The notes beneath the pieces were generated by a model that was not told the origin of the DNA, did no database searches, and saw only the letters and a program-made list of their open reading frames with translations. 37,819 nucleotides of DNA from an uncultured Candidatus Bathyarchaeia archaeon (GTDB lineage: Archaea; Thermoproteota; Bathyarchaeia; Bathyarchaeales; Bathyarchaeaceae). The stretch is from the NCBI GenBank assembly GCA_964346135.1, contig CAYFTS010000056.1, positions 1-37,819 of the forward strand. Reading direction: 5' to 3'. Both the position numbers and the translations under genes were made by a program. How positions within the stretch are numbered: the stretch's first letter is position 1; each line of letters starts with the position of its first letter. Shown here piece by piece: positions 1-27,270 of the stretch.

Positions 1-861
1 TTTAACATTAGTGATTTTTATGTCGTTAGTGTATCTAACCGTTATGCTAAGTGTGTAGGTGTCATTGTTCGCCGTGTCGTCGGTAACTGTCAGCGTCACC
101 TGATGAGCTTCAGACACCATGTATTGATGAGTTACGATTTCACCCGTTCCTGTTGTTCCATCGCCGAAATCCCATTCGTAGCTGACAATTGTTCCATCTT
201 GGTCGTAACTTGTGGAGGCATTGAAAGTCACTGTCTCATTTATTTTTGGGCTGTTCGGAGAATAGGTGAAGTGTGCTACAGGAGGAAATTCTAGGTTGGT
301 GAAGAAACCGTTTACTGGAGTGAAAGGAATATTCTTTGGAACTTGACCTCCTCCAAAAAAAGCCATCTCTATTAGTTTGGTGCCAGTCAATTTTTGGTCT
401 TCATAAGGACGGCCATTTTTGAGTACAATCGTGTTGTTGATGTTCAAGTAACTTTCACCCGTTCCGAGAACCTTAAACTCTACAGTAGCAAGGGTTCCAG
501 ATCCATCTACTCCACTGTATTGGCCTTTCGTTGCCCACATGAACATCACCCAACCTTCCTCTACAAGAGGGGGGACAGTAGTTGTTCCTTCGGGTTGTTC
601 CTTGAGGATTTCGCCTTGGATCACGTTGACATATTCCAAGATGTTGGGGTCAAAGCTCATGTTAACTTGATAAGAATACAGATTGATGACATTTTTAACT
701 TCTACGTCTACAGTGAAGGTTTCACCAGGCATTGCTCTGCTTATCTCAGGTTCTACGAAGACTATAGTATTAGTGGCAGAGGATATCATTCCAACATTCA
801 TCAACGCTGTTGGAACAATAACAAGCATAAATAACAAAAACAAACTCTTCTCCCTTCTCAT
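1..861 (-). CDS. Secreted cohesin-domain plus PKD-domain protein. N-terminal 287 aa are visible; the 3' end runs off the left edge of the window.
   Basis: Absent from the supplied ORF track because it is open to base 1. Reverse-strand ATG at 859-861 is preceded by GGTGG (SD-like) and an AT-rich box. My translation is MRREKSLFLLFMLVIVPTALMNVG... (signal peptide). It continues with a cohesin-like module IVFVEPEISRAMPGETFTVDVEVKNVINLYSYQVNMSFDPNILEYVNV...GTLATVEFKVLG (about nt 367-765). A classic PKD module follows: VTFNASTSYDQDGTIVSYEWDFGDGTTG...VTLTVTDD (about nt 37-282). The plus-strand track ORFs 103-294 and 394-834 lie antisense to it and look spurious. Confidence 0.75.
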   Translation of the reverse strand, partial: MRREKSLFLLFMLVIVPTALMNVGMISSATNTIVFVEPEISRAMPGETFTVDVEVKNVINLYSYQVNMSFDPNILEYVNVIQGEILKEQPEGTTTVPPLVEEGWVMFMWATKGQYSGVDGSGTLATVEFKVLGTGESYLNINNTIVLKNGRPYEDQKLTGTKLIEMAFFGGGQVPKNIPFTPVNGFFTNLEFPPVAHFTYSPNSPKINETVTFNASTSYDQDGTIVSYEWDFGDGTTGTGEIVTHQYMVSEAHQVTLTVTDDTANNDTYTLSITVRYTNDIKITNVK

Positions 862-1008
862 CACACTGACCACCCAATCAAATTTGAAGTATTAAATACG
901 TTCTCACCAAATCATTTAAAGTTATCTGCTTTTCTCATTGATTCCACTTTGACGCTTTCCCACAGCAATTTGCGTGAGGATACATGCATGTACACAACTC
1001 TTGAAGAG

Positions 1009-2793: not shown

Positions 2794-4833
2794 CTAGCTT
2801 CCAGTAACCCACCAAGTGTAGGTTCTGACCTTTTCCGCTTGGATCCATGGAGTTGTATGATATCCGTCTTCGTCAGTCCAGGTGTATCTGTACTCGCCAG
2901 TTAATGTAGTGATCCATTTGCCCGTATCATAGCTCTTCAGTGTCCAATAGGCGACTGGAAGTTCAAGGTTTTCTTCGGGTTGAATGACGAAGCTCTCTGG
3001 GAACACTGGGTTGAACTTTGAGAATTCCACCTTTACTCTTAAGGAGTCTACTCTCATGGGTCCACCAGTGAGACCTGGATCATAGTTGTATATCAGAACG
3101 GATAGGCTGTTGAGTCCTTCTTCCGTTAGAGTCGCTGGGATTCTCTCAGATACTGTTTCGTCGAGCCAACGCACGCTTCCCCAATCCCATGTTTCGGTTC
3201 CATATAATGAGCCGAGCCAGACAAACATGGCTGGGTCGATGCTATAGACGTCTATGTCCATACCCTCGTCGGCTCCGTTGGGATACTGGGTATAGCCTTC
3301 AAGAATTACATTGCCAATGAGTCGGTCGCCTAGCACGAGGTCCTCAAAGCCGTAAACCGAAGTCATGGCACCGTCGATAGAGCTTTCAGCGTAGTTGCCA
3401 TCAGGTGGGCCAAACAAGCTTGTTCCAGGATTGATCCAATCCCATTCTAGCCATGGATCATACTCGTTGACGTACAGGTATTCAAAGTCTATTGGACCGA
3501 AACCCGAGTATATCTGTCCGCTGTAGATCTGAAGTCTTTGACCGTCTTCTACACGGTACATGTCCCAATGAGTCCTTACTTCCAGTGGCACACTGGCTAG
3601 GTTCTTGATTTTTGTTCCGAAGTATTGTATATCGCCAACTGTCTTGGCACGCTTGCCTGTGCTTCCCATGATTAGCTCTGCGGTTGGTCCGTAGTATGCA
3701 CTATCGGCAGTTTGGTGAAGTAGGGCTGCCCCATTACTGTCGAGTAGATCTACATCAACCAGATTGATCGGCGAATTGCCCGCGCTCACAATTTTGAACT
3801 TGATTGTTGCCAATGTTCCATTTCCATTTGCTCCGACATTTGGCTTGAGGAAAGTTGGGAGTCGCGTGTATCCTATGTTAACCGTTCCTGTCAGGACGTC
3901 GATTGTCTTGACGAAATGGGTGTTGTAGCCGTCTTGATCCAAGAAGTCACCTTTGATGATTTCAGCGGCTATAATGGTCTTTGCGAAAGGTGCATAGTCC
4001 ACTTTGAAACCTACAGTCCACAGATCTGTGGCGTTGGCTACGTTTATATCGACGTAGAATTCGTCACTCCAATATGAGTAGTCTGCCGTAATCTCTGCAG
4101 AATCACTGGGTACATACAGGAAAGTTACCACGCCGGTCTTGTCGACGATTGTGTAGTCAACATATCTGGTTTGAGGAACACCGTCAACGTAGATGGTTTC
4201 GCTTTCGTAATCTAATGGGGGACTAGAGAGACTGAACTCCGCGATGTATGATGTATAATCTGCCGTGACTGTTGCAGTATCGGCTGGCAGATATAGGAAG
4301 GTTATCTCACCAGTCCAGAAGTCAATTGCATAATCCGTATCTCTCGTTTGAGGAACGCCGTCAACGTAGATGGTTTCGCTTTCAGGAATCACCGGAGTTT
4401 CAGCGAGGCTGAACTCTAGGTTACCGTATTTGTAGTCTGCGGTGATTACCGCGTCCTTGCGAGGAGCATTGTCAAACGTTATTGTGCCAGTCCAGTAATC
4501 AATGGTGTACTTGCCGGCATGCGCCACGTGACCAGCGATGTAGACAGTTTCAGTTGACTCACCCACTGGAGTGTTGGCGAGATAAAACACCGTGGTGTCA
4601 CCGTCCCCAACTCCAAGGGTTTCGTTCACAACTGTAGTCCACATTTCAACTCCGACAGCGTCACCCACAACTGGGTAATGAAACCTCGTGTCTAAGGTCT
4701 CAACCATGCTGGGGTCCACGTAGACTACTGCTTCTGTCCCTTGAGCGCTAACAACCGGTAGCGTAGCAGCAACCATCACTGCAATCCAAGAAAGCCATAA
4801 CAAGTTTTTGATTTTTCCTTTCATTCTATTCAC
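2794..4833 (-). CDS. Secreted cohesin-domain protein with three tandem ~59-aa repeats and a ~300-aa C-terminal region of unknown function
   Basis: Signal peptide MNRMKGKIKNLLWLSWIAVMVAATLPVVSAQG. Cohesin-like module FYVDINVANATDLWTVGFKVDYAP...GTLATIKFKIVSAGNSPINLVDVDLLDSNG (about nt 3709-4062), resembling the cohesin in the 1-861 ORF. It begins 9 nt downstream of the dockerin-bearing SBP gene, so co-transcription is likely. Confidence 0.7.
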   Translation of the reverse strand: MNRMKGKIKNLLWLSWIAVMVAATLPVVSAQGTEAVVYVDPSMVETLDTRFHYPVVGDAVGVEMWTTVVNETLGVGDGDTTVFYLANTPVGESTETVYIAGHVAHAGKYTIDYWTGTITFDNAPRKDAVITADYKYGNLEFSLAETPVIPESETIYVDGVPQTRDTDYAIDFWTGEITFLYLPADTATVTADYTSYIAEFSLSSPPLDYESETIYVDGVPQTRYVDYTIVDKTGVVTFLYVPSDSAEITADYSYWSDEFYVDINVANATDLWTVGFKVDYAPFAKTIIAAEIIKGDFLDQDGYNTHFVKTIDVLTGTVNIGYTRLPTFLKPNVGANGNGTLATIKFKIVSAGNSPINLVDVDLLDSNGAALLHQTADSAYYGPTAELIMGSTGKRAKTVGDIQYFGTKIKNLASVPLEVRTHWDMYRVEDGQRLQIYSGQIYSGFGPIDFEYLYVNEYDPWLEWDWINPGTSLFGPPDGNYAESSIDGAMTSVYGFEDLVLGDRLIGNVILEGYTQYPNGADEGMDIDVYSIDPAMFVWLGSLYGTETWDWGSVRWLDETVSERIPATLTEEGLNSLSVLIYNYDPGLTGGPMRVDSLRVKVEFSKFNPVFPESFVIQPEENLELPVAYWTLKSYDTGKWITTLTGEYRYTWTDEDGYHTTPWIQAEKVRTYTWWVTGS
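4075..4560 (-). repeat. Three in-frame tandem repeats (period 177 nt / 59 aa) inside the 2794-4833 CDS
   Basis: Protein repeats: ESTETVYIAGHVAHAGKYTIDYWTGTITFDNAPRKDAVITADY, ESETIYVDGVPQTRDTDYAIDFWTGEITFLYLPADTATVTADY and ESETIYVDGVPQTRYVDYTIVDKTGVVTFLYVPSDSAEITADY. At DNA level, gtttgaggaac[a/g]ccgtcaacgtagatggtttcgctttc occurs at 4169-4206 and 4346-4383, exactly 177 nt apart. Confidence 0.8.
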
Positions 4834-4842
4834 CTCATGTTC

Positions 4843-6915
4843 TTATGAGCCGTATTCCCTTGGTACACCCCAGTAGAAGCTCAGCAATGTAACGTCTGTT
4901 GCGTCAACGATGCCATCTTCGTTAACATCTGCTAGCGGGTTGTATCCTGCCTGACCTAAGCGTTTTCCGAAGCTTAGGCTCATCGCGCTAAGATCAGTGG
5001 CATCCATATCACCATCACTGTTAGTGTCGCCGATTTTGTGGAACATTTCCACTACCATTGAACCAACATCCGTCGTGTCAACGAAATAGTTATCATTGCG
5101 ACTGAAGTCTGCGACTCCTCCTGTCGTGTCATAGCCTCCGAACACGTACGGTCCTGTTCCAAACAGTTGAGTTGGTGTTGACACAGGGCCGGTGTTTGTG
5201 GTGTTTAGCCAAACTGTATATCCAAGAATTGTTTGTTGATCTGCGCCGTCCAGCCAACTCCACACTTGGGGTGGAAGCATTGGAGCAATTTCAGCGAAGT
5301 CATATAGGTTGAACCTGCTTGTCACGTAGGAGTACACCTCAAAGGCGGTGCTATTGATTACTTGCACATCGGCGATGTTTTCCCATCCTGCTCGGTACCT
5401 TGGTATCTGATTGTTTCGCATGAACTCCAAAGCAAATTCGGCGTCGTCGGGTGTGTATAGATTTCCATCTTGCCAGTAGACGTCTGTTCTCAAGTTGAAG
5501 GTTACCTTCATGCCGTTTGTGATGTTAACTTGAGAGCCCGCGGTGACATCGTGGAACCTATCTTCACTGTCAAGAGTGATCGTCATGTTGAGAGGTCCCT
5601 CTAATTTCCAACCTGAAGCAATCCAAGGTAGGTCTTCATGGGTGTACGGGTTTATTGTTATCAATTCATCAAGAACCATGTCGATGATATTCCACTCGTA
5701 AACCGTGCTTGCCCATGTGGGGTTCATTGAATCAGGTTCCAAGTTGAGGCAGAAGATTATCCTGTCATCTCCTGTTCTAGGACGCAGGCCGTCTGGTGTA
5801 GTCCATTCCATGTTCATTAGGGTCCATGGAAGGTTTTCCCAGGGGTCTGAGCCGAAGCCAGGTGAGTTTATGATGCCTCCAAGATCTGGGTCGAAGGCGT
5901 TGAAGTATATCCTTGAGTACATTTGCATGTATGGAAAAGCCCATGGGTTGGATGCGTTGTACAACCATGCTTGAGCCGCATAGGCGGCTTCCACCTGCTC
6001 CCTTTGGTCGAGACCGAACTTCACTATTTCAGTGAGCTCATCAAGTACAGGGTCGTGGATGCCAACGGGGTTGTAGCCATCAGGGATGTCTTGGCTTGAG
6101 TGGGTCATGTCATATAGGTGATCGGGGAACCGGTTAAGGCTCCAGAATATCATGTACATGTCGAAGTCGTGATTAGTGAAGACATCGGTGGTGTACGCGT
6201 TGAAGTCTCTTGGTTGATGAATTATGTTGTTGAGTCCGCATCTATTCCACTCTTCAACTATTCTAGCACCGTGATCATGGGAGGTAGGTGCAGTTTCAGA
6301 GGTTGGCGTCCACAAATACATGGTTGGCAACGGGTTGTCCGATGGATCTGTCCAATAAGCGCTTAGGTCCCCATATCCGCTGCCATGGTAAGTGTAGCCT
6401 GCGCCTTTCAAAACCCCGAACACGCTAGGCGTGCCTGGCGGATCGCTGGCATCACCAGGATTGAACGGATACTGTGGGACATCAGGGTTCACCCAGCCAC
6501 CTTGAGCTGGAGGAACTAGAGATTGAACAGGTGTCACCGTGTATTGATAGATTTGAGCAATTATTTGGTCTTGCGCGTATCCGTGGAAGAGAGCGCGTCT
6601 GAAGTTCACATCATTAAGCACAGGTTTCCTCAAGTTGAAACCGACGTGCCCCATGTGAAAACCAGCGGCGTCTGTAACAGTGAAGCCTAGATTAACCAAC
6701 TGTTCAATGTCTGAGGTCCTTATGAGGTTAGTAAGGATGTCGATATCATGATTCCTCATCGCCAATAGCTGAGCATCAGGTTGTGTGACGAGATACTCAC
6801 GCCAATTGGCTGCGCTCGGACCAGCTGCACTGACGCTCGTACTGCTCATAGCAACGAAGAGAAGCAATGTATGCAGCGAAATCAATGCTATCTTAAATGT
6901 TGTTTTTGATTTCAA
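4843..6915 (-). CDS. ABC transporter substrate-binding protein, family 5 (peptide/oligosaccharide/nickel type), with a C-terminal dockerin. Segment order appears circularly permuted.
   Basis: Family-5 SBP motifs are present: MKVTFNLRTDVYWQDGN (family signature region), LFGTGPYVF...RNDNYF, GFNLRKPVLNDVNFRRALFHGYAQDQII and VPPAQGGW. There is a signal peptide without a lipobox Cys. The TTG start at 6913-6915 has GGAG upstream; the first ATG would delete the signal peptide. The C-terminal dockerin has DTNSDGDMDATD and DVNEDGIVDATD (about nt 4858-5034). The gene is divergent from the permease/ATPase genes of the same transporter. Confidence 0.85.
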   Translation of the reverse strand: MKSKTTFKIALISLHTLLLFVAMSSTSVSAAGPSAANWREYLVTQPDAQLLAMRNHDIDILTNLIRTSDIEQLVNLGFTVTDAAGFHMGHVGFNLRKPVLNDVNFRRALFHGYAQDQIIAQIYQYTVTPVQSLVPPAQGGWVNPDVPQYPFNPGDASDPPGTPSVFGVLKGAGYTYHGSGYGDLSAYWTDPSDNPLPTMYLWTPTSETAPTSHDHGARIVEEWNRCGLNNIIHQPRDFNAYTTDVFTNHDFDMYMIFWSLNRFPDHLYDMTHSSQDIPDGYNPVGIHDPVLDELTEIVKFGLDQREQVEAAYAAQAWLYNASNPWAFPYMQMYSRIYFNAFDPDLGGIINSPGFGSDPWENLPWTLMNMEWTTPDGLRPRTGDDRIIFCLNLEPDSMNPTWASTVYEWNIIDMVLDELITINPYTHEDLPWIASGWKLEGPLNMTITLDSEDRFHDVTAGSQVNITNGMKVTFNLRTDVYWQDGNLYTPDDAEFALEFMRNNQIPRYRAGWENIADVQVINSTAFEVYSYVTSRFNLYDFAEIAPMLPPQVWSWLDGADQQTILGYTVWLNTTNTGPVSTPTQLFGTGPYVFGGYDTTGGVADFSRNDNYFVDTTDVGSMVVEMFHKIGDTNSDGDMDATDLSAMSLSFGKRLGQAGYNPLADVNEDGIVDATDVTLLSFYWGVPREYGS

Positions 6916-7050: not shown

Positions 7051-8085
7051 GTGAAGAAGAAATGTCCAGCCGTATGCGCAGGAAGTGCTACGGTGAGAAA
7101 ATACCTATTGAAACGTATCATTATAGCGCTGCTGGTCTTATGGGTAGTCGCTACACTAAACTTCGTCATATTTCAGATTTTGTCACCAATAAGTCCAGAA
7201 AAGACGATTTTGGATCCTCAATTCACACCCGAGGTAAGAGCGGCGCTAAGAGAACTATACGGCCTTAACGAACCTATACTTACAAGATATTTCTACTATC
7301 TCAGAAACATGTTCACATGGGACTTCGGTTTCTCCTTTCAGAGTCTGCGTCCAATATCAGCTGAAATGGGATGGCGGCTAGGTAACACTGTACTGCTTCT
7401 CGGTTCGGCATTGATTTTGACAATCGCGGTGGGCATTCCCCTGGGGATACTAGCTGCCTCGAGGAGAGGATCTAAACTGGATGTTGCGGCGATTGGCGCT
7501 GGATTGTTCACATGGGGAGTTCCAATTTTCTTCATTGAACTGTTGTTCTTAATCTTCTTTGCATTGGGTCTTCGAGAAGTGTTTGGTTTCCAAGTTTTCC
7601 CTTTGTCACACATCTACAGCCCATCTCCTCCAACAAATCCGATTCTTTTCATAGCTGATGTTGCATGGCATCTATCTCTCCCTCTTATAACGTTGACAGT
7701 TGCATCGTTTGGTTTCTGGGCGCTATACACTAGAAATATCTTGCTGGAGAGCCTTACACAGGATTTCGTGATGACAGCTCGTGCTAAGGGGCTCAGCGAG
7801 AGAACTGTGTTGTATGGACACGCCTTCAGAAGCACGCTTCCTCCCGTTGTTACAATGGTCACGCTAGCTGTCCCGGGAATAGTGACTGGAGCCATGATAA
7901 CTGAATGGATATTTCAGCTACCCGGAATTGGCCGTTGGTACTTGGATGGGCTGTTGGCTGGGGACTACCCAGTGGTTCAATCCGTGCTTTTTATCTATGC
8001 TGTCCTGACGATCGCGGCCAATCTTATTGCCGACCTTTTGTATGGAGTGTTGGATCCGCGTATACGTGTAGGTGAAAGAAGGTAG
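7051..8085 (+). CDS. ABC transporter permease, OppB/DppB type
   Basis: Typical N-terminus (RKYLLKRIIIALLVLWVVATLNFVIFQ), six hydrophobic segments, an EAA-loop region (FVMTARAKGLSERTVLYGHAFR) and the C-terminal DLLYGVLDPRIR. The real start may be the in-frame GTG at 7093 (VRKYLLKR...). Confidence 0.9.
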   Translation: MKKKCPAVCAGSATVRKYLLKRIIIALLVLWVVATLNFVIFQILSPISPEKTILDPQFTPEVRAALRELYGLNEPILTRYFYYLRNMFTWDFGFSFQSLRPISAEMGWRLGNTVLLLGSALILTIAVGIPLGILAASRRGSKLDVAAIGAGLFTWGVPIFFIELLFLIFFALGLREVFGFQVFPLSHIYSPSPPTNPILFIADVAWHLSLPLITLTVASFGFWALYTRNILLESLTQDFVMTARAKGLSERTVLYGHAFRSTLPPVVTMVTLAVPGIVTGAMITEWIFQLPGIGRWYLDGLLAGDYPVVQSVLFIYAVLTIAANLIADLLYGVLDPRIRVGERR

Positions 8086-9535
8086 GGAGGCAAAAGTTGT
8101 GTCACCTCTAATCTCCGAAGAAAGAAGGATAATGTGGGCAAAAAGGATTAAGGGTTTCTGGCAAGAATTTAGAAGGAAAAAGATTGGTGTAGTAGGCCTT
8201 TTCCTCTTGGCCTTGTTTGTAATAATGGCTGTTTTTGCGCCTTGGCTAACACCGTACCAACCTTTGGGTTCTGAGCGCGTAGCCACAGGGTTTGCGATGC
8301 CTCAATGGGTTAAAATCTTTCCTGGACTTCAAGACCTTCCGTCTACGCATAGCATGTCGCTTTATTGGGAGAAAGAGGAAGCGTCTGAATTCATAAAAGC
8401 ATGGGGACACAATGTTGTAGTACAATTCGAACCGGGAACGACAGAAACCGTGTATGTTGAGCTCGGCGCCAAAATCTCCTATCCGGAAGATTCCCCGCCA
8501 GACACGTTCTATATCACCTTCACTTGGGGTGCGGAACAAATCAAAGACATGGAGTACTTACTCAAACTGATCGTGGTTAATCCAAAGGGTGAATCTTACC
8601 TCCTATGGCTTCCACAAGGTTGGCAAACGAAAAGTAAGGGTGCGAGTGTTTATATTGACTCACATAATCCTCTCCTGATGGATAGATTAGGCCTCAAACG
8701 CGGCGAAGATAATCTAGCGAACATTGTCTTCTCAGAAAAAGGTGAATACAATTTCACTCTGCAGGTGGCGTTCAAGCCGCAGACAGAAAACGCAGAGGCC
8801 AAGATTACTTTCCAAGATACCACTCTCGTCACATTGGGAGGAGTACATGGCATTCTGGGTACCGATAACGAAGGAGTAGACATCTGGGCGCAGCTGGTGT
8901 ATGGAGCTAGAATCTCTTTAACGATAGGATTGCTGGCGGCTATTCTCGAAACGATCATAGGCATCACCGTGGGAGTTTTTGCAGGATACTTAGGCGGTCC
9001 TGTCGACGAAATTTTAATGCGAATAGTAGACATACTTCTTTCTTTACCCCTTCTGCCCTTACTGTTGGCTCTTGTAGCTTTGTTCGGAGCGAACGTGATG
9101 TACATAGTTCTCTTCGTGGCAATATTTGGCTGGCAAAGCTTATCAAGGATCGTCAGATCTCATGTTCTCTCTCTACGGGAGACCTCTTTTATCGAGTGTG
9201 CTCGAGCAGCTGGTGGCAGTAGGTTTTACATAATACTAAAACACATGATACCCAACGTTCTTCCCATTGCCTTTGCATCCATGGTGCTTAGTGTACCATC
9301 TGCGATCTTGTTTGAGGCCACGTTGAGTTTCTTGGGGTTTGGCGACCCCAGCGCACCTACTTGGGGAAGAATGCTTTCCTACGCCTTTGGAGCAGGTGGA
9401 TTCACCCATTTGCCAATAGCTTGGTGGTGGGTATTACCTCCCGGACTAGCAATAACTTTCCTCTGTTTGGCCTTCGTGTTTATGGGGCACGCAGTTGACG
9501 AGATTGTAAACCCAAGGTTGAGGAGGCGGCGGTGA
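8072..9535 (+). CDS. ABC transporter permease, OppC/DppC type, with a large extracytoplasmic insert after TM1
   Basis: Canonical OppC motifs: GILGTDNEGVDIWAQLVYGARISL, an EAA-like FIECARAAGGSRFYIILKHMIPN, and the C-terminal DEIVNPRLRRR. It overlaps the upstream permease by 14 nt. An alternative start is ATG 8132 (MWAKRIKGFW), which has an SD-like GAAGGA. Confidence 0.9.
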   Translation: MKEGREAKVVSPLISEERRIMWAKRIKGFWQEFRRKKIGVVGLFLLALFVIMAVFAPWLTPYQPLGSERVATGFAMPQWVKIFPGLQDLPSTHSMSLYWEKEEASEFIKAWGHNVVVQFEPGTTETVYVELGAKISYPEDSPPDTFYITFTWGAEQIKDMEYLLKLIVVNPKGESYLLWLPQGWQTKSKGASVYIDSHNPLLMDRLGLKRGEDNLANIVFSEKGEYNFTLQVAFKPQTENAEAKITFQDTTLVTLGGVHGILGTDNEGVDIWAQLVYGARISLTIGLLAAILETIIGITVGVFAGYLGGPVDEILMRIVDILLSLPLLPLLLALVALFGANVMYIVLFVAIFGWQSLSRIVRSHVLSLRETSFIECARAAGGSRFYIILKHMIPNVLPIAFASMVLSVPSAILFEATLSFLGFGDPSAPTWGRMLSYAFGAGGFTHLPIAWWWVLPPGLAITFLCLAFVFMGHAVDEIVNPRLRRRR

Positions 9536-10507
9536 ATGGAAAGGTTGTTAACTGTCGAGAACCTAAAGATGTACTATGAGACCATGAGAGGATACGTCAA
9601 GGCAGTGGACGATGTAAGCTTCACTGTGAATAAGGAGGAGGCTTTAGGACTCGCTGGCGAGTCCGGATGTGGAAAAACGAGTGCCGCATTAGCAATTTTG
9701 AGACTATTGCCTTGGAATGGTAAGATAATTGAAGGAAACGTCACATTAGCTGGTGAAAACCTCATAAAAATGAGCGACAAAGAACTTCGACAGAAGATTA
9801 GGTGGAAAAGGATTTCTATGGTATTTCAAGGAGCAATGAACGCCCTTCATCCAACTTACACAATTGGGCGTCAAATAGCGGAGCCGATACTTAAACATGA
9901 AGACGTTAGCAAGCGTGAAGCAATGGAACGAGCTGGGAAGCTTCTTGAACTTGTGGGGATTGAACCCGAAAAAACTGTTCGGTACCCATATGAACTCAGT
10001 GGCGGTATGAAACAGCGTGCCATTATAGCGATGGCTCTAGCCTGTAACCCCGACCTGATTATCGCAGATGAGCCGACTACTGCGTTAGATGTCATTGTGC
10101 AGGCTCAAGTGTTGAAGGTCATGGAAGACTTAAAGCGTAAGCTGAAACTTTCCTGGATACTAATATCACATGATCTCTCGATAATCGCTGAAACGTGTAC
10201 AAAGGTTGCGATTATGTACGCTGGAAAAATTGTGGAATACGGAGACGTAGTGCACATATTCAAAGAACGCTTGCATCCGTACACAGAAAAGTTAGTAACT
10301 GCTTTTCCAAGCGTGTTGGGACCCAAGAGAGAGCTTTCTTCTATACACGGCTTCCCGCCGGACCTTCTTGAACCCCCAGCTGGATGCAGGTTTAATCCGA
10401 GATGCCCACATGTTATGGAAATTTGCAGAACTGAAGAACCTTTACTTACCGATGTTGGCAAGAAACATCATGTGGCATGCCATCTGCACCACGGTGAAAA
10501 ATCTTGA
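9536..10507 (+). CDS. ABC transporter ATP-binding protein, OppD/DppD type
   Basis: Walker A GESGCGKT, ABC signature LSGGMKQR, Walker B LIIADEPTTALD, and H-loop ISHD. The C-terminal oligopeptide-transporter domain has a Cys/His cluster (GCRFNPRCPHVMEICR...HHVACHLH). Confidence 0.95.
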   Translation: MERLLTVENLKMYYETMRGYVKAVDDVSFTVNKEEALGLAGESGCGKTSAALAILRLLPWNGKIIEGNVTLAGENLIKMSDKELRQKIRWKRISMVFQGAMNALHPTYTIGRQIAEPILKHEDVSKREAMERAGKLLELVGIEPEKTVRYPYELSGGMKQRAIIAMALACNPDLIIADEPTTALDVIVQAQVLKVMEDLKRKLKLSWILISHDLSIIAETCTKVAIMYAGKIVEYGDVVHIFKERLHPYTEKLVTAFPSVLGPKRELSSIHGFPPDLLEPPAGCRFNPRCPHVMEICRTEEPLLTDVGKKHHVACHLHHGEKS

Positions 10508-11520
10508 AAGAAGATGTAACTATAGAAGTTCGAAACTTGGTGAAGTATTTCCCAGTGAAATTAGGGTTCTTCAAGACGCTAAGATCGAAAGAAATGTTGT
10601 ATGTTCACGCTGTTGATGACGTGAGCTTCAAAATCAAAACTGGCGAAATATTTGGGCTTGTAGGCGAAAGCGGATGCGGAAAAACTACAACTGGAAGATG
10701 TTTGCTTCGACTGATCGAACCTACCCAAGGTGAAGTGATCTTCAAAGGCGTAGACATAATATCCCTCTCCCTAGAACATGACGTAAGAAGACTACGACGG
10801 AAAATGCAAGTAATATTTCAGGACCCATATGAATCTCTAAATCCGAGAATGAACGTTCTGGACATAATAGCGGAACCATTGCGAATTCAAAAAGTCACTA
10901 AAAGTGAGAGGGAGGTCAATGAGAAAGTAGCCGAAGCCTTGGAGGATTTGGATTTAGTTCCGCCTGATGAGTTTCTGTATAGGGTTCCCCACGAACTTAG
11001 CGGTGGCCAGAGACAGAGAATTGCCATAGCCCGAGCCTTTGTGCTCAAACCTGAGTTTCTAGTTGCAGATGAACCTGTATCGATGCTTGACGCGTCCATC
11101 AGAAGCGAAGTTCTAAAACTTCTCTTGGATCTGCAACAAAGATTTCACACTTCGATTCTCTATATAACACATGACATAGCTTTAGCTCGGCATTTGTGCG
11201 ACCGCGTCGCGGTCATGTATTTGGGTAAGATTGTAGAGAAAGGGGTTACGGAGGAACTAATTCAAAAACCGATGCACCCATACACTAAGGCATTAATAGC
11301 CGCTGTGCCAGTTCCCGACCCAACAGCAAGGCGGATTAGTGTTGTGATCGGGGGAGAAGTTCCAAGCGCCATTAGCCCACCCCAAGGATGCCGATTCAAT
11401 ACGCGGTGTCCTCACGTCATGGGGATTTGCCGAAAGAAAGAACCGCAACTTACTGAACTCGACCAGCGCAGACATGTAGCATGCCACTTGCATACTAGCT
11501 CAAAGGTTTCAAAAACATGA
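10504..11520 (+). CDS. ABC transporter ATP-binding protein, OppF/DppF type
   Basis: Walker A GESGCGKTT, signature LSGGQRQR, Walker B FLVADEPVSMLD, and H-loop ITHD. The C-terminal domain has GCRFNTRCPHVMGICR...RHVACHLH. A 4-nt overlap with the upstream ATPase gene indicates translational coupling. Confidence 0.95.
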   Translation: MKEDVTIEVRNLVKYFPVKLGFFKTLRSKEMLYVHAVDDVSFKIKTGEIFGLVGESGCGKTTTGRCLLRLIEPTQGEVIFKGVDIISLSLEHDVRRLRRKMQVIFQDPYESLNPRMNVLDIIAEPLRIQKVTKSEREVNEKVAEALEDLDLVPPDEFLYRVPHELSGGQRQRIAIARAFVLKPEFLVADEPVSMLDASIRSEVLKLLLDLQQRFHTSILYITHDIALARHLCDRVAVMYLGKIVEKGVTEELIQKPMHPYTKALIAAVPVPDPTARRISVVIGGEVPSAISPPQGCRFNTRCPHVMGICRKKEPQLTELDQRRHVACHLHTSSKVSKT

Positions 11521-11565: not shown

Positions 11566-12057
11566 ATGGCTCTAAATGCAAGACGAATCATAATAATAGC
11601 TTTCATATTAACTACTGTAGTTTTCAATGTCATCACCGTTTACACTGCAGGAGTTTACTTCCGAGCATATGCTGGAGTGAGGAATTTTAACGTTAGCATC
11701 CAGGAGTTCAAGGCCAACATCTTCAATGCATCTTACGCATCAACAGAGACCATTTTGACCATCCGTAATCCTTCACAATGCATGTTTGAGGCATTGTACA
11801 TCGTAGAACGACTAGAACTCGAAGGTCAATTCATATCAGTTGATGGTATGTATATGTGGACGAAGCCTCTGCAGATACCTCCACAGTCGAACATCACTGT
11901 GACACTCGAGCAGAATATTCACTATGATCGCATACAATACGTGCGATCTCGACTAGAGGAATATTGGCTTATGGAGATCCGAATGTTGTTGAATGGGCCT
12001 CTCGTCGGAACCTTCATGTACAACTCGTTGTTCACGACTAAGATAACCAATATTTAA
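11566..12057 (+). CDS. Hypothetical single-pass membrane protein
   Basis: ORF with an N-terminal TM segment (RRIIIIAFILTTVVFNVITVYTAGVYF) followed by a probably beta-rich ectodomain carrying several NxS/T sequons. I recognised no family with confidence; a LEA14/WHy-like fold is only a guess. Confidence 0.45.
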   Translation: MALNARRIIIIAFILTTVVFNVITVYTAGVYFRAYAGVRNFNVSIQEFKANIFNASYASTETILTIRNPSQCMFEALYIVERLELEGQFISVDGMYMWTKPLQIPPQSNITVTLEQNIHYDRIQYVRSRLEEYWLMEIRMLLNGPLVGTFMYNSLFTTKITNI

Positions 12058-12071
12058 ATAGAAAGCATCAT

Positions 12072-12953
12072 ATGAGCTCAAAGGAATGTTTGGCCAACAT
12101 GGGGGAGTTCCACGTGAACTCTAACATTAAAAAAAGGAAATACCCTCATAGTACTAGCAGATTCTACCTCAGCGCTCTGACCGCTCTGTTGTCCGTGATT
12201 TTGGCACTTCTACTATTGCAGGATTCCATCTTGTCGCTATATTACTTCGTCTCCACGTTGCTTATGACAATAATCACCTTCATATTGAGGACCCGCCTAT
12301 TCTCCGCTGGAACACCAAAGCACTCAGAAAAGGAATTGTTTGAAACTGAAAAAAGCGATTCAACATTTGGAATGTTGATACTCATGCTTTTTGCGCTACT
12401 TGCATTTGTGGTTATTCCAATTCTCCTGGTAAGGGTGTTAGATCCGTATACTTGGTTTATACTCATAATCAGCCTCACGTCAGGAGTTAGCATCGCGGAG
12501 GTACTCTTCTATCTCAACATAAAGAGATCTGGTTTAAAAGTAATGAGAAGATTAAAGATGCGCCGTTCGATGTGGGTTCTATTTTTGTTAGGTGCTTCAA
12601 GTCTTAACTACGCCAGCGTCTCCTTGCTAGTCATCGTTTGGAGGCTCGATATCTTCTATTATTTGCCTATGGTTTTCATCATCAGTTGCATGATCGGCGC
12701 CCTGGTGGTAGACATCACAAAGTCTATTATTTACACATATACCTGTATGATCATAGGTTACATGATAACAATCGCAACATTTTTGCTCCCCTACGTAATA
12801 TTTGCGGAGAGCGTTGAAAGAATTAACCTAGCCATCATCGCAGTTCTCAATACCATAGTAAAGGTTTTCTTCATTAGTGCAATCGTATACTTCTTAGGCG
12901 CGATAGTGGGATGCTTCTTGGGCGAGAAGTCACTGGAACAGACTCAGATATAA
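12072..12953 (+). CDS. Hypothetical polytopic membrane protein
   Basis: A 293-aa ORF with at least 6 long hydrophobic segments. No recognisable catalytic motif. The start codon is uncertain. Confidence 0.45.
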   Translation: MSSKECLANMGEFHVNSNIKKRKYPHSTSRFYLSALTALLSVILALLLLQDSILSLYYFVSTLLMTIITFILRTRLFSAGTPKHSEKELFETEKSDSTFGMLILMLFALLAFVVIPILLVRVLDPYTWFILIISLTSGVSIAEVLFYLNIKRSGLKVMRRLKMRRSMWVLFLLGASSLNYASVSLLVIVWRLDIFYYLPMVFIISCMIGALVVDITKSIIYTYTCMIIGYMITIATFLLPYVIFAESVERINLAIIAVLNTIVKVFFISAIVYFLGAIVGCFLGEKSLEQTQI

Positions 12954-17731: not shown

Positions 17732-19165
17732 ATGAAGCCTACAATCAATTTGTTAACCCGAGACGAACTTTACGAAATTCATCTAGCTACAGTGAACATT
17801 CTTGAACGAGTCGGCGTAGGCATCTACGAGGAAAGAGCGCTTAAACTGATGGATGAAGCTGGGGCAAACGTTGATTACGATAAGAAGGTTGTGAAGATAC
17901 CTCAGTATCTTTTGAAGGAGTTAATTAGTAAAGCTCCCGAAGTTGTTACACTTTTCGCTAGAAATCCCAAGCGCACGGTTAGACTTGAACCTGCAAAAAC
18001 TTACTTCAACAACTCAAGTTACGGAATAAATGTATATGACTTAGATACTGGAAAACATAGAGATTCAAAAAGCGAAGATGTGATCAATTTCGCGAGACTA
18101 GTAGACGCTTTAGAAAACATTCATGTTTATCAGCCTACGGTCACAGCGCATAACATTCCAGAATATATTAGAAGTATCCATGAACTTGCAATATCGCTGG
18201 AGAACACTTCGAAACACGTGTCACATGCAGCTTCCGGTGCTGACGCAATCAAACGTTATATTCAGATAGGCGCAGCGGTTGCGGGAGGAGAAGAGGAACT
18301 TAGGAAGAAACCATTAATCTCTGCCAGCACATGCCCCATAAGCCCTTTACAACACTCAAAAGAAGACACAGAGACCTTAATCGAATACGCCAAATTTGGC
18401 TTACCGTTTTTCATATTAAGCATGGCTATGGGCGGAGGAACAGCGCCACTCACAATTGCAGGCGAATTAGTTGTGATTAACGCCGAAGTTCTCAGTGGAA
18501 TAGCCTTAGTTCAACTTGTAAACCCGGGGACCCCTGTGCTTTACGGCAGTGTATCATCAACAATGGACATGAAAACAGGCAAAACAGCGTTAGGTGCCCC
18601 TGAAAGACCTCTAATCAATTCGGGATGCGCTCAGCTGGCTAGATACTATGGAATCCCATCTTGGATAGGAGCCTGCTCAACAGACGCCAAGGCCTCTGGA
18701 CCTCAAGCGATGTTTGAGAAGGTTATGACAGCCATCCTTCCTATGTTGGCGGGCGCCAACCTCATATATGGTCCAGCCATACTGGATTCTGGTAAGACCT
18801 ATGGTTTCGAGCAGTTGGTTCTCGACAACGAGATAATAGGAGCAGCTTACCGCATCCTAGAAGGCGTGGACGTAAACTCAGAGTCCTTAGCCCTTGAAGT
18901 CATAGAAAAAGTTGGAATAGGCGGTCACTACTTAGCTCAGAAGCATACGAGCGATCACGTGTTAAGCGATCAGTGGAGACCCACGCTGTTGGATAGGGGA
19001 ACTAGAGGAGACTGGGTTAAAGCTGGCTGTAAGGATATATGTGCGTTGGCAAGGGAGCAAGCTAAGAAGATTTTGTCATCTCATGAAGTTGAACCGTTAG
19101 AAAAGGATGTTAAAGAAAAAATTTGGGAGATACTGAAGAAGGCGGAGAAGGAGCTGAAAGACTAA
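17732..19165 (+). CDS. MttB-superfamily (trimethylamine methyltransferase-like) protein, non-pyrrolysine type
   Basis: A 477-aa uninterrupted ORF with the typical N-terminus (LTRDELYEIHLATVNILERVGV) and core (PISPLQHS..., GPAILDSGKTYGFEQLVLDNEIIG, GIGGHYLAQKHT) of the MttB family. There is no in-frame TAG, so it belongs with the quaternary-amine (MtgB-like) branch rather than true Pyl-MttB. Confidence 0.85.
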   Translation: MKPTINLLTRDELYEIHLATVNILERVGVGIYEERALKLMDEAGANVDYDKKVVKIPQYLLKELISKAPEVVTLFARNPKRTVRLEPAKTYFNNSSYGINVYDLDTGKHRDSKSEDVINFARLVDALENIHVYQPTVTAHNIPEYIRSIHELAISLENTSKHVSHAASGADAIKRYIQIGAAVAGGEEELRKKPLISASTCPISPLQHSKEDTETLIEYAKFGLPFFILSMAMGGGTAPLTIAGELVVINAEVLSGIALVQLVNPGTPVLYGSVSSTMDMKTGKTALGAPERPLINSGCAQLARYYGIPSWIGACSTDAKASGPQAMFEKVMTAILPMLAGANLIYGPAILDSGKTYGFEQLVLDNEIIGAAYRILEGVDVNSESLALEVIEKVGIGGHYLAQKHTSDHVLSDQWRPTLLDRGTRGDWVKAGCKDICALAREQAKKILSSHEVEPLEKDVKEKIWEILKKAEKELKD

Positions 19166-24624: not shown

Positions 24625-27270
24625 TCATGGATATGTTTTGCCGTAGTTTGCAGCGAAAACACCGAAGTCAAACCAGTCAACATCGCCGTCCCAGTCAAAG
24701 TCACACTGATCGTCATAGTTGGAACCGCCAACACTGCTTCCATAAGCCTGAGCGAAATCGCCGAAGTCAAACCAGTCCACGTCTCCGTCGCCGTTCAAGT
24801 CGCCAGCATGTGTCACGAAAACTGCGCTGTAGATGTGGGTATTGTCTAAAACGTCGAGTTCGCTTGGAACTAGTGTGGCGTAGGCGCTTATGATGTAGTT
24901 GCCCTTGGCAAAGTCTGTAGTGTTCCATATGAAAGTGATGGTTGTGAAGTCTCCACTTGTTAAGGTGATGTTGGTAAGTGTGTCGATGATAGTTGTGTTG
25001 GCGTAGGTAGTTATGTTGAAGTTTTCAGAATAGGCTCCCTGATTTGTTACTGTCACGTTTATGCTCAAGGTGAGTCCTTGTCCCACAAATGTTTTGGAGG
25101 GAGCAACGCCTGTAACAGACATGTCGTGGACTTCGCCTCCAACGTGTGTCATTACCACAGGTTCAGCTCCATTGTTATGGAGCCAGAGGTCCCAGATGGC
25201 ATTGCCCCAGCCTTTCAAGTTGGCGAAGAAGGGGTCAGTTTGGATAATGTAGGCTTCAAGGGGCAGGGTATTACCATCTCCGTTTATCTCATCTCTAAGA
25301 AACTCGATGTACTCTTTGGAAGTGGTTTGATAGTAGAGGGTTGCATTCCAAGAAGCAGTGCCAGCAGGTTTTGCTATCGTTACATCATCATAGCCACCTG
25401 CATATTCTTCAGGAGTAAAGTAGTCTGGTGCGTCCTCACCTTCCCACCTTGGCTGGACAAGTCTTGTGTACATCTCAGTTGTGTCAAAACCTTTTGGTGG
25501 AATCCTGTTGTCTTTGTAGCGGTCTGTGGCAAGGGCAAAATGGAAGGTCTTATTCTCCCCTGTGAGTTCGACACTTGCCATCTCAGCCTCCCACACTAGC
25601 CTTTCATGTGTCTTATTGAGGTCACCACCTGACACGTAGACCTCATTGCCGTTAGCATCCGTTGTTGTTACAAGAGGCTCATATGGGTTGATCTCTCCTA
25701 TCAGGCGGTCAGCTTCATCGAAGAACTGCACACTGAGGAACATTCTCCTGCCCTCAGGGAAACCTGAGATGAGCTTGTGCCCTCCATTGTTTGTGACCCT
25801 TATTGTAACGTTAGTAGGGTTTTCATCTACAACACTGAGGTTGGCAGCCATTTGCAGTTGCTGGATTGCTCTGTCTGCACCATCTAAGAGAGCTTGTCCA
25901 TATCCTTGAATTCCAGAAACATCTATCTGGGCGCCCTCGTACATCAGACCTGAGAGAATAGCATAGTTATATGCGTCATATACAGGTCCGGCTGAATCAG
26001 TTGACGCTAGAATTCTTAGAATCCATTGGTTGCCACCAGTCAAATCGTGTAGTGGGAGGTCAGTTCTAATTGGTGTACCAGCCTTGTTACATCCCGCTCC
26101 TGTTACATCTCTCATGTGGCAGTCTTGACACTTTTCTGCCCAAGGTATAAGTGGGATGTTAGTTGCAGTTCCACCTCTTCCATATTCGCTCAGGAGAAAT
26201 TCGCTGGCAGTTCTTTCTACGTGGAAATAAGTTGCTGCTGCCTGTGTCTCGGGAACATCTTCACCAAGAAGCACGCTAGCAAGAATTGGATTTGAGACAT
26301 CGTGGCATGTTACGCAGAACATCTTGCTCTTGTGATAACGAGAATAGTATATCTGATGCTTCGCATTGGCATCCCAGAATGGCCCCCGTTTAGCATTACC
26401 TGGGTCCACAAAGTACTGCCCTGCAGCATTTTCCACGTAATATGGAAGACTGCCATCGCCATAGTAGGTGGGAAGATTTGTGGCGGTGTTGAGAAACAGG
26501 GTTCCATTAAAGAGTGTAAGGGTTCTCAACACTTCTATATCCCTTAGGTAAGTTTCTTCTGCCATTGATTGGGCGACTGACTGTGTTTGGCTGTATATCA
26601 CCACCGAAGTTACAGTCGGGATCACAAGAAGTGTTATGCTCAACATTGTCCAGGTTCTTTTAGAGTTTATTTTTGATTTGCTGGCTACTATAATCAAGGG
26701 AATGAAAAGGAGCCAGGGATATGCGTAAATGGGAATTTCCAGTGAGTTGACTTTGGCTGAACTTGTGGTGGACGAAGCTGTCTCTGGGGGGACATCTGTT
26801 TGATTTAACTGGGTAAACGGATCTATCATCTTGTGGCAGAAATCGCACTGAACGCCATCAAAATCTGTTGTTCTAAGGGCTGCGGTATTGGTGGGATCAC
26901 TTCTGCCTTCAAGCCACCCTGTTGGAGAATGACAACGTATACAGATGTCTCCTGCATTGGGGTTACCAACAGCCCATATGGAATCCTGATCTGCCACTGT
27001 TAGACAGGCTAGCCACAATGGGTCTCTTGCAGCCTGAGCCATCATAGAGCCCCTCCAATTGTAAGCTGGCTCCACAGTGATATTGTAACCTCCATGGCAG
27101 TTGTCACATTTATCTGGTGTCTCAAAAATGCCTACTTCGCCTGGTTGTGATCCTGGCATGAACACATTACGGTCGTCTTTAACAGGTGTCGGTGTCCACG
27201 AATAGATGGAGAAAACTGTCATGAGAAAAACCAATGTTAAAACTAGTAATATTCCTAACATACGTTTCAT
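24625..27270 (-). CDS. Multihaem c-type cytochrome (5 CxxCH) with an internal hydrophobic hairpin, a CARDB-like module and a C-terminal dockerin
   Basis: Signal peptide MKRMLGILLVLTLVFLMTVFSIYS. The CxxCH motifs are CDNCH (nt 27094-27108), CIRCH, CDFCH, CVTCH and CQDCH, at aa 55, 110, 142, 319 and 381. The CARDB-like segment is HDMSVTGVAPSKTFVGQGLTLSINVTVTNQG.... The dockerin has DLNGDGDVDWFD and DFDWDGDVDWFD (nt 24628-24804). Several track ORFs on both strands inside this span are shorter and lack motifs. Confidence 0.8.
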   Translation of the reverse strand: MKRMLGILLVLTLVFLMTVFSIYSWTPTPVKDDRNVFMPGSQPGEVGIFETPDKCDNCHGGYNITVEPAYNWRGSMMAQAARDPLWLACLTVADQDSIWAVGNPNAGDICIRCHSPTGWLEGRSDPTNTAALRTTDFDGVQCDFCHKMIDPFTQLNQTDVPPETASSTTSSAKVNSLEIPIYAYPWLLFIPLIIVASKSKINSKRTWTMLSITLLVIPTVTSVVIYSQTQSVAQSMAEETYLRDIEVLRTLTLFNGTLFLNTATNLPTYYGDGSLPYYVENAAGQYFVDPGNAKRGPFWDANAKHQIYYSRYHKSKMFCVTCHDVSNPILASVLLGEDVPETQAAATYFHVERTASEFLLSEYGRGGTATNIPLIPWAEKCQDCHMRDVTGAGCNKAGTPIRTDLPLHDLTGGNQWILRILASTDSAGPVYDAYNYAILSGLMYEGAQIDVSGIQGYGQALLDGADRAIQQLQMAANLSVVDENPTNVTIRVTNNGGHKLISGFPEGRRMFLSVQFFDEADRLIGEINPYEPLVTTTDANGNEVYVSGGDLNKTHERLVWEAEMASVELTGENKTFHFALATDRYKDNRIPPKGFDTTEMYTRLVQPRWEGEDAPDYFTPEEYAGGYDDVTIAKPAGTASWNATLYYQTTSKEYIEFLRDEINGDGNTLPLEAYIIQTDPFFANLKGWGNAIWDLWLHNNGAEPVVMTHVGGEVHDMSVTGVAPSKTFVGQGLTLSINVTVTNQGAYSENFNITTYANTTIIDTLTNITLTSGDFTTITFIWNTTDFAKGNYIISAYATLVPSELDVLDNTHIYSAVFVTHAGDLNGDGDVDWFDFGDFAQAYGSSVGGSNYDDQCDFDWDGDVDWFDFGVFAANYGKTYP

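Follow-up and report, generated by a model that had tools for sequence, protein, structure and literature searches.

Sequence profiles and a structure model point to a probably archaeal family of circularly permuted cluster-C substrate-binding proteins, most of them with a C-terminal dockerin

The closest described relatives of the protein analysed here are the cluster C substrate-binding proteins (SBPs) of ATP-binding cassette (ABC) importers, among them DppA, OppA and NikA. The protein is encoded on the reverse strand of a 37,819-nucleotide (nt) stretch of contig CAYFTS010000056.1 from an uncultured Candidatus Bathyarchaeia archaeon, the whole of which we call the window. It shares with the cluster C SBPs homology over the whole SBP and the same OppB, OppC, OppD and OppF partners with oligo_HPY tails. 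Unlike them, it is circularly permuted, with a cut at residues ~237–242 of the DppA precursor (~209–214 of the mature protein), and it has a C-terminal dockerin instead of an N-terminal lipid anchor. TpMglB-2 (Tp0684) of Treponema pallidum, the founder of 'Cluster Bc', is a circularly permuted glucose-binding protein, and its authors speculated that the topology is an adaptation for tethering (PMC4990184). TpMglB-2 is likewise a natural, family-shared circular permutation of an ABC binding protein, and the only one for which we found a description, but it belongs to cluster B (type I), is cut at another site, has no sequence homology to the present protein and is an N-terminal lipoprotein without a dockerin. 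All sequence and fold matches of the present protein are to cluster C, which places it outside 'Cluster Bc'.

Dockerin-bearing binding proteins of the NikA/OppA type and of the TroA type are common in the genomes of anaerobic methanotrophic archaea (ANME) (Chadwick et al. 2022, PMC9012536). These are likewise archaeal SBP–dockerin fusions, and the genomes concerned abound in cohesin and dockerin proteins; joining a dockerin to an SBP is therefore no novelty as such. That report consists of domain annotations and, in a comparison of descriptions, makes no mention of a permuted topology, a cohesin gene cluster or an OppC ectodomain. The locus also resembles cellulosomes and the archaeal non-cellulosomal pairs in its type-I-like dockerin, its cohesin fold (that of 2xdh) and its membrane-anchored cohesins beside dockerin cargo. 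In contrast to cellulosomes, the predicted cargo is a transport receptor and an Asp-box propeller, not glycoside hydrolases, the cohesins are single instead of being arrayed on a multi-cohesin scaffoldin, and the anchors are C-terminal transmembrane (TM) helices in place of S-layer homology (SLH) or sortase anchors. With one detectable cohesin per cluster protein, the pairing of a multi-cohesin scaffoldin with carbohydrate-active dockerin enzymes that marks a cellulosome was not found. No published permuted Opp/Dpp/Nik-type (cluster-C) SBP was found in full-text literature searches, and the family is apparently undescribed.

The Pfam model SBP_bac_5 (PF00496) matches the protein with an E-value (E) of 1.1e-34 (120.6 bits; cutoff 32.4). 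The match is split in two, and its better part aligns residues 42–270 with late model positions (154–357 of 368). The same swap appeared when the single sequence was compared with PDB chains by phmmer: residues 77–156 matched DppA 253–331 and residues 247–329 matched AppA 408–487, while residues 385–471 matched positions 30–118 of a dipeptide-binding protein (4qfk) and residues 467–623 matched positions 59–195 of NikZ (4oet). NCBIfam gave partial matches only, again in swapped order (Opp4A 294–466 on residues 85–265 and NikA 61–200 on residues 467–623), all far under every equivalog cutoff, and none of its curated models covers the permuted family. A family profile was built from an alignment of 45 full-length homologues and compared with E. 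coli DppA (chain 8z1z_F, precursor numbering). Profile positions 33–364 aligned with DppA 237–520 (independent E-value, i-E, 1.1e-14) and positions 393–624 with DppA 27–242 (i-E 2e-6). The two pieces meet at DppA ~237–242 and cover residues 27–520 once, without duplication, a pattern characteristic of a clean circular permutation and not to be expected from a duplication or a rearranged fragment. These swapped two-piece matches to DppA and other PDB chains are far beyond chance, and the alignments identify the chain as a permuted cluster-C SBP.

As a control, residues 373–622 were joined in silico to residues 31–372, with the junction at 250/251. The de-permuted sequence gave one alignment to DppA across the junction (95–376 on 87–359), and junction-spanning alignments were also obtained with SapA (13–372 on 35–380) and NikZ (95–378 on 59–309). 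The canonical colinear segment order of PF00496 proteins is absent from the native chain and is recovered after de-permuting. The loop that holds the cut belongs to lobe 1 and is flanked, in canonical order, by the strand '...NDNYF', for which canonical proteins have '...YWG', and by the strand 'ANWREYLVT', whose canonical counterpart is 'kPqIDtLvF'. Judging by the known DppA structures, we place this loop in domain I (lobe 1), within its second segment, ~50 residues ahead of the crossing to lobe 2. The first segment of the permuted chain (segment A) takes in the end of lobe 1 and the whole of lobe 2 and then returns to lobe 1. The old termini are joined by ~28 unaligned profile positions, and so short a join is consistent with both native termini lying near each other in lobe 1.

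The permutation had been proposed in an original prediction made from the letters of the sequence, on the strength of motifs that occur in swapped order. All of these motifs are read from the sequence at the residue and nucleotide positions assigned to them, including LAMRNHDIDIL (51–61), GFNLRKPVLNDVNFRRALFHGYAQDQII (92–119), IIFCLNLEPDSMNP (386–399), MKVTFNLRTDVYWQDGN (469–485), LFGTGPYVF (584–592) and RNDNYF (606–611). The proposal is borne out by the profile pieces that are swapped relative to DppA, by the colinearity of the de-permuted sequence and by the half-profiles, which are swapped across the family as described below; in the PF00496, PDB and DppA comparisons alike, late canonical coordinates precede early ones, as it had anticipated.

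The AlphaFold2 (AF2) model made with the family alignment has a mean predicted local distance difference test score (pLDDT) of 91.3 and a predicted TM-score (pTM) of 0.84, with the dockerin region at pLDDT 83–91. In a Foldseek search of the PDB, the top 50 matches were all cluster-C SBPs (LpqW included) at probability 1.0, DppA, AppA, NikA/NikZ and OppA among them. The alignments covered ~300–365 columns of targets of ~500 residues, with a target TM-score (TMt) of ~0.4–0.5, and no solved structure in this search matched the model over its full length. Such partial coverage is expected, because the aligner is sequential and the chain is permuted. Together, the pLDDT values, the Foldseek probabilities and the profile cover of DppA 27–520 indicate the bilobed three-domain fold of DppA and OppA.

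A first search for homologues returned 102 clusters (at 90% identity), covering 92–100% of the query length at 27–89% identity, together with one canonical SBP of 529 amino acids (aa). C-half (A), N-half (B) and dockerin (D) were each given a profile of their own, and with these 98 of the 113 sequences of this search read A-B-D. Seven others read A-B-B-D and two A-A-B-D, readings that reflect insertions and not duplications; the remainder comprised two sequences with two dockerins, three contig-end fragments and the canonical control P0103, which reads B-A. We extended the survey with an exhaustive HMMER search of 1.84 billion representatives, which found 612 proteins at E <= 1e-30, and the order was read in the best 150 of the 612. 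These yielded 132 new representatives at 50% identity; all that contain both halves (~120) read A-B, the canonical B-A order was seen in 0 of the 132, and a second canonical control, L047, reads B-A. Since every member with both halves shows the order proposed for the window's protein, the permutation defines the family. The members are annotated at source as ordinary 'peptide/nickel transport system substrate-binding protein', and one homologue, on contig SMTZ1_10001478, is 85% identical to the protein of the window.

Several homologues depart from the common length. Seven (P0034, P0046, P0051, P0053, P0056, P0070 and P0075) carry an insertion of ~105–240 aa in the N-half, at one point (profile position ~75–80, inside the extra domain II), while in two others the insertion lies in the C-half. 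Long homologues of 1000–1200 aa were considered as tandem-duplicate intermediates and rejected, as they carry insertions or extra N-terminal domains and no second copy of the SBP.

The new C-terminus is the tether point in more than 90% of complete members. Among the 132 representatives, ~104 (~80%) end in a dockerin, 10 in a hydrophobic helix with a basic tail, 6 in another extension and 4 in nothing; the dockerin is the commonest C-terminal anchor of the family, not the sole one. In the window, the dockerin is matched by Pfam Dockerin_1 (PF00404) at residues 629–679 (31.3 bits against a cutoff of 22.9) and by PDB dockerins with E 4.7e-9 for the single sequence (2y3n_B) and 6e-12 for the profile, and the dockerin profile matches nearly all complete family members. 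Its calcium-binding loops are DTNSDGDMDATD (630–641) and DVNEDGIVDATD (663–674), and the AF2 model places helices at 614–626 (conserved, preceding the dockerin), 639–648 and 672–680. Judged by its sequence, the module is a bona fide dockerin, as the original prediction had it, with two DxNxDGxxDxxD loop–helix repeats. The reading frame begins with a TTG codon preceded by AAAGGAG. Cysteines occur at residues 226 and 389 only and there is no lipobox; as the signal contains no cysteine, it is not of the lipoprotein type. The chain ends in the dockerin, so the further expectation of a protein with neither a lipobox cysteine nor a C-terminal TM helix also holds.

Candidate partners for the dockerin are encoded next to it. 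The product of the gene directly downstream (Table 1) starts with a signal sequence and also contains DUF2460-like repeats, a cohesin (residues ~257–385, nt ~3679–4065) and a conserved beta-rich C-terminal domain. The Pfam Cohesin model (PF00963) falls under its cutoff here (18.3 bits against 24.1, E 0.0027), and a profile of the neighbour family matched a PDB cohesin marginally (E 0.077). The AF2 model of the protein has pLDDT 77–93 over residues 260–400 and retrieves many cohesins with Foldseek at probability 1.0 (2xdh, 6kgd and 1aoh; TMt 0.57–0.70, root-mean-square deviation ~3 Å), among them the non-cellulosomal 2xdh of A. fulgidus (TMt 0.70, 2.7 Å). The model thus suggests the nine-stranded beta-sandwich of a cohesin. 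The gene that follows encodes a propeller with weak similarity to PD40 and a sub-threshold GH43 match in Pfam. The counterparts of the fourth, partial gene are cohesin–PKD–CARDB proteins, and in 9 of 9 loci checked they end in a C-terminal TM helix with an RRR/KK tail. Five further cohesin–PKD C-termini are alike (four from ~900-aa fifth genes and one from a ~450-aa cohesin–PKD–CARDB paralogue in L006), three of them scoring lower for hydrophobicity.

The DUF2460-like repeats of the downstream protein occupy residues ~67–240, as three copies of 'ESETIYVDGVPQTRDxDYxI...TGxITF' that match DUF2460 and the phage distal tail family TIGR02217. They are restricted to its closest homologues, most of the neighbours being ~460 aa long and without them, and the region is poorly modelled (pLDDT 45–85).

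On the other side of the SBP gene lie genes for a divergent OppBCDF transporter on the opposite strand. The OppC protein has 487 aa against the usual ~300, owing to a beta-rich, extracytoplasmic insertion of ~200 aa (nt 8255–8893, forward strand) between TM1 and the permease core. The insertion has no sequence match in Pfam or the PDB, a word-indexed search for its homologues returned a single protein, and its position recalls the P2 loop of MalF. For genomic context we scanned, with local profiles, the window, four loci obtained by exact protein look-up and 39 metagenome loci. The gene order is conserved in ~30 loci; contigs of TM-anchored and of anchor-less members are too short to reveal their gene neighbours. 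The divergent OppBCDF adjoins the permuted SBP in 23 (the window and 22 others), in each of which OppC carries the insertion (E 1e-43 to 1e-113) and no other SBP gene lies within the cluster. A secreted protein of ~460–700 aa is encoded directly downstream of the permuted SBP in ~23 loci, and the rest of the recurrent cluster consists of the Asp-box/BNR propeller–dockerin protein, a cohesin–PKD–CARDB protein of ~430–490 aa and a cohesin–PKD protein of ~900 aa. Some of these parts are fused elsewhere: a single chain in L024 (855–4499) comprises a cohesin, a permuted SBP, a dockerin, a second cohesin and a second dockerin, and propeller–permuted SBP fusions occur in L016 (5875–9438), L036 (2592–4415), L042 (2154–4184) and P0027/P0028 (~1180 aa). 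These fusion proteins support a functional link between the parts of the cluster. In several of the propeller fusions, the part joined to the propeller is a second permuted SBP–dockerin.

Taking these data together, we consider it probable that the permuted SBP is the surface receptor of the divergent OppBCDF importer and is held in place by cohesin–dockerin pairing. A Sec-type signal would export a chain whose first strand corresponds to DppA precursor residue ~237 and which then runs through lobe 2, the return to lobe 1, the short join, the canonical N-terminus and the remainder of lobe 1 to '..NDNYF' (DppA ~242). This chain is predicted to fold into the usual bilobed Venus-flytrap. The dockerin would plug, in a calcium-dependent manner, into a cohesin of the same cluster, the candidates being the secreted cohesin protein encoded directly downstream and the membrane-anchored cohesin–PKD–CARDB proteins. 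Such pairing would keep the receptor at the surface beside OppBCDF, where the ligand could be handed to the permease, and the propeller–dockerin protein may be anchored alongside it. The C-terminus created by the permutation would in this way serve as the tether point, most members bearing a dockerin there and some a TM helix. As to the ligand, R383 and D436 of DppA clamp the carboxylate and amino groups of the dipeptide. In the permuted family, D436 aligns with Gly/Arg of a near-invariant 'W.LGRFPDHLY' and no Arg is present at R383, in an alignment that is uncertain by 1–2 residues. The classical peptide specificity is thus unsupported, and the ligand could equally be an oligosaccharide or something else.

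Several observations weigh against a tethered OppBCDF receptor. Four of the representative clusters are permuted without any C-terminal anchor. Tethering does not require a permutation, since canonical archaeal SBPs have anchors too, on their native termini, and the permutation may be a neutral historical accident. The adjoining cohesin protein has no TM helix beyond its signal peptide, and the binding of the dockerin to the neighbouring cohesins is predicted from gene context. The permutation at the level of the fold is drawn from sequence profiles together with the AF2 model. Finally, L006 and L012/L013 have no OppBCDF upstream in the sequence at hand, while the trio of SBP, cohesin and propeller genes is present, which makes a role independent of the permease possible.

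The last of these points bears on an alternative that we regard as unlikely, in which the swapped order is real and the protein is a ligand-binding or structural module of a cohesin–dockerin surface complex instead of a transporter receptor. It would capture or sense a substrate, and OppBCDF would either rely on a different SBP or be only loosely linked. The isolated trio, the propeller–SBP and cohesin–SBP fusions and the lack of conservation, in the alignment, of the ligand-clamping Asp and Arg of DppA would all suit such a module. It is harder to reconcile with a divergent OppBCDF that adjoins the gene in 23 loci with no second SBP gene in the cluster, with the retention of both lobes of the SBP fold and with an OppC ectodomain that, in the loci recovered here, is always found beside a permuted SBP.

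The nature of the C-terminal module admits another reading, to which we give still less weight: the module could be an EF-hand-like calcium-binding part that stabilizes the fold, for example by capping the new terminus, and the neighbouring cohesins would then serve the propeller protein only. The strong matches to solved dockerins given above and the presence of both canonical loop–helix repeats argue otherwise, as does L024, in which cohesins are fused into the same polypeptide. Furthermore, the module is replaced by a TM helix in 10 representative clusters and missing in 4, suggesting that it is not needed for the fold. What speaks for a stabilizing part is the conserved helix before the module, the family-specific '..WG..KEYP' tail that is not found on the dockerin of the propeller protein, the fact that Pfam names a dockerin in a minority of members only, and the model itself, whose pLDDT (83–91) and pTM (0.84) suggest rigid packing on the SBP. 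An artefactual permutation, produced by a chimeric assembly, by two partial SBP genes fused through a frameshift or by a partial tandem duplication with halves that do not fold together, could be suspected from the metagenome-type contig and from a Pfam match in two separate stretches instead of one domain, but it is effectively refuted by the more than 200 sequence clusters, drawn from numerous independent assemblies and sources, that share the order and the junction, by the single coverage of DppA 27–520 without duplication, by the lack of any N-half, C-half, N-half intermediate among the members and by the single confident AF2 fold (pTM 0.84).

Within the preferred reading of a tethered OppBCDF receptor, the permutation could itself be adaptive, orienting the receptor over the OppC-ectodomain permease as part of a cohesin–dockerin 'transportosome' that couples processing to uptake. 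We offer this as a tentative suggestion and lean against it. The permutation would have moved the chain end to a surface site at which a dockerin or TM tether orients the receptor, and the propeller, possibly an exo-glycosidase or other substrate processor, would share the membrane cohesins with the receptor. Were this true, it would represent a new principle in the organization of archaeal surface transport, and the tethering hypothesis put forward for TpMglB-2 would gain evidence from nature.

No earlier natural circular permutation seems to be known in the cluster C (Opp/Dpp/Nik) class; that of the present family is fixed in hundreds of sequence clusters. With TpMglB-2 in cluster B, it suggests that the Venus-flytrap fold has been rewired more than once in nature, and the tethering of more than 90% of complete members at the new C-terminus makes the idea of 'permutation for tethering' testable. 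The conserved cluster would also provide a concrete case of cohesin–dockerin pairing that mounts a transport receptor, beyond the co-occurrence of domains noted in ANME. In practical terms, the natural cut site (DppA ~209–214, mature numbering) and the linker offer design information for permuted peptide or oligosaccharide biosensors. Pipelines currently label the members as ordinary SBPs and split the domain, and a dedicated model would mend the annotation. The features on which the analysis is based are listed in Table 1.

Table 1. Positions in the window of the permuted SBP gene, its parts and the neighbouring genes.
Feature	Position (nt)	Strand	Basis
Whole gene: secreted circularly permuted family-5 (cluster C) SBP with C-terminal dockerin, 690 aa	4843..6915	-	Open reading frame (ORF), Pfam, AF2
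Signal peptide, residues ~1–30, MKSKTTFKIALISLHTLLLFVAMSSTSVSA then AG	6826..6915	-	Sequence reading; predicted helix 4–24, then low-pLDDT stretch
Segment A, residues 32–372: canonical C-terminal ~285 residues (DppA precursor 237–520)	5800..6822	-	Profile–DppA alignment; half-profile match 32–372
Join of old C-terminus and old N-terminus, residues ~366–385, ...WTLMNMEWTTPDGLRPRTGDDR	5761..5820	-	Profile gap 364–393; pLDDT 78–89
Segment B, residues 374–621: canonical N-terminal ~215 residues (DppA precursor 27–242)	5053..5796	-	Profile, half-profile and PDB matches
Conserved linker helix and dockerin, residues 623–689	4849..5049	-	Pfam, PDB 2y3n_B, motifs, predicted helices
Gene directly downstream: secreted cohesin-containing protein, 679 aa	2794..4833	-	Pfam, AF2 and Foldseek, locus conservation
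Third gene: Asp-box/BNR beta-propeller with C-terminal dockerin, 566 aa	1009..2709	-	Dockerin_1 E 2.8e-9, sequence, conserved position
Fourth gene, partial at contig end: signal peptide, cohesin, PKD-like	1..891	-	Cohesin profile E 7e-21, translation
OppB-type permease, divergent	7051..8085	+	Pfam BPD_transp_1 E 1.9e-36
OppC-type permease, 487 aa	8072..9535	+	Pfam OppC_N 27–64, BPD_transp_1 297–485
OppD and OppF ATPases with oligo_HPY C-terminal regions	9536..11520	+	Pfam ABC_tran and oligo_HPY

Beyond OppF, the window has two small ORFs of 163 and 293 aa (11566–12953, forward strand) without a Pfam match. Small genes with no recorded Pfam match stand at the same position in L002 (1977–3358) and L005 (2131–4295), and these genes may be conserved components of the cluster. 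In several related loci, an extra OppD-like ATPase gene lies 1–2 kb past OppF, mostly on the opposite strand (L003 1581–2576, L017 2329–3330, L022 2709–3749, L026 1448–2473 and L030 1199–2239); it was not seen in the window.

A further dockerin-like sequence occurs in an 881-aa secreted protein encoded at 24625–27270 on the reverse strand, which has five CxxCH haem motifs, CARDB and, at its C-terminus, a double repeat resembling a dockerin, GDLNGDGDVDWFD...DFDWDGDVDWFD...YGKTYP. From these motifs the product looks like a dockerin-tailed multihaem cytochrome, and its presence in the window would make dockerins seem a general device for surface attachment in this organism. The window also encodes an archaeal LonB AAA-LID domain, a TrmB regulator and an ApgM-type phosphoglycerate mutase; among the related loci, L006 has an ATP-dependent DNA ligase, and the C-terminal TM anchors are of the archaeal type. 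These markers fit the archaeal source of the window, and an origin in sediment is probable. An Rfam PYLIS_3 match at 18677–18776 on the forward strand (43.3 bits against a gathering score of 38) lies inside the ORF at 17732–19165. This MttB-family ORF has 477 codons and no in-frame UAG, which identifies it as a non-pyrrolysine MttB homologue, and the match probably reflects similarity of coding sequence.

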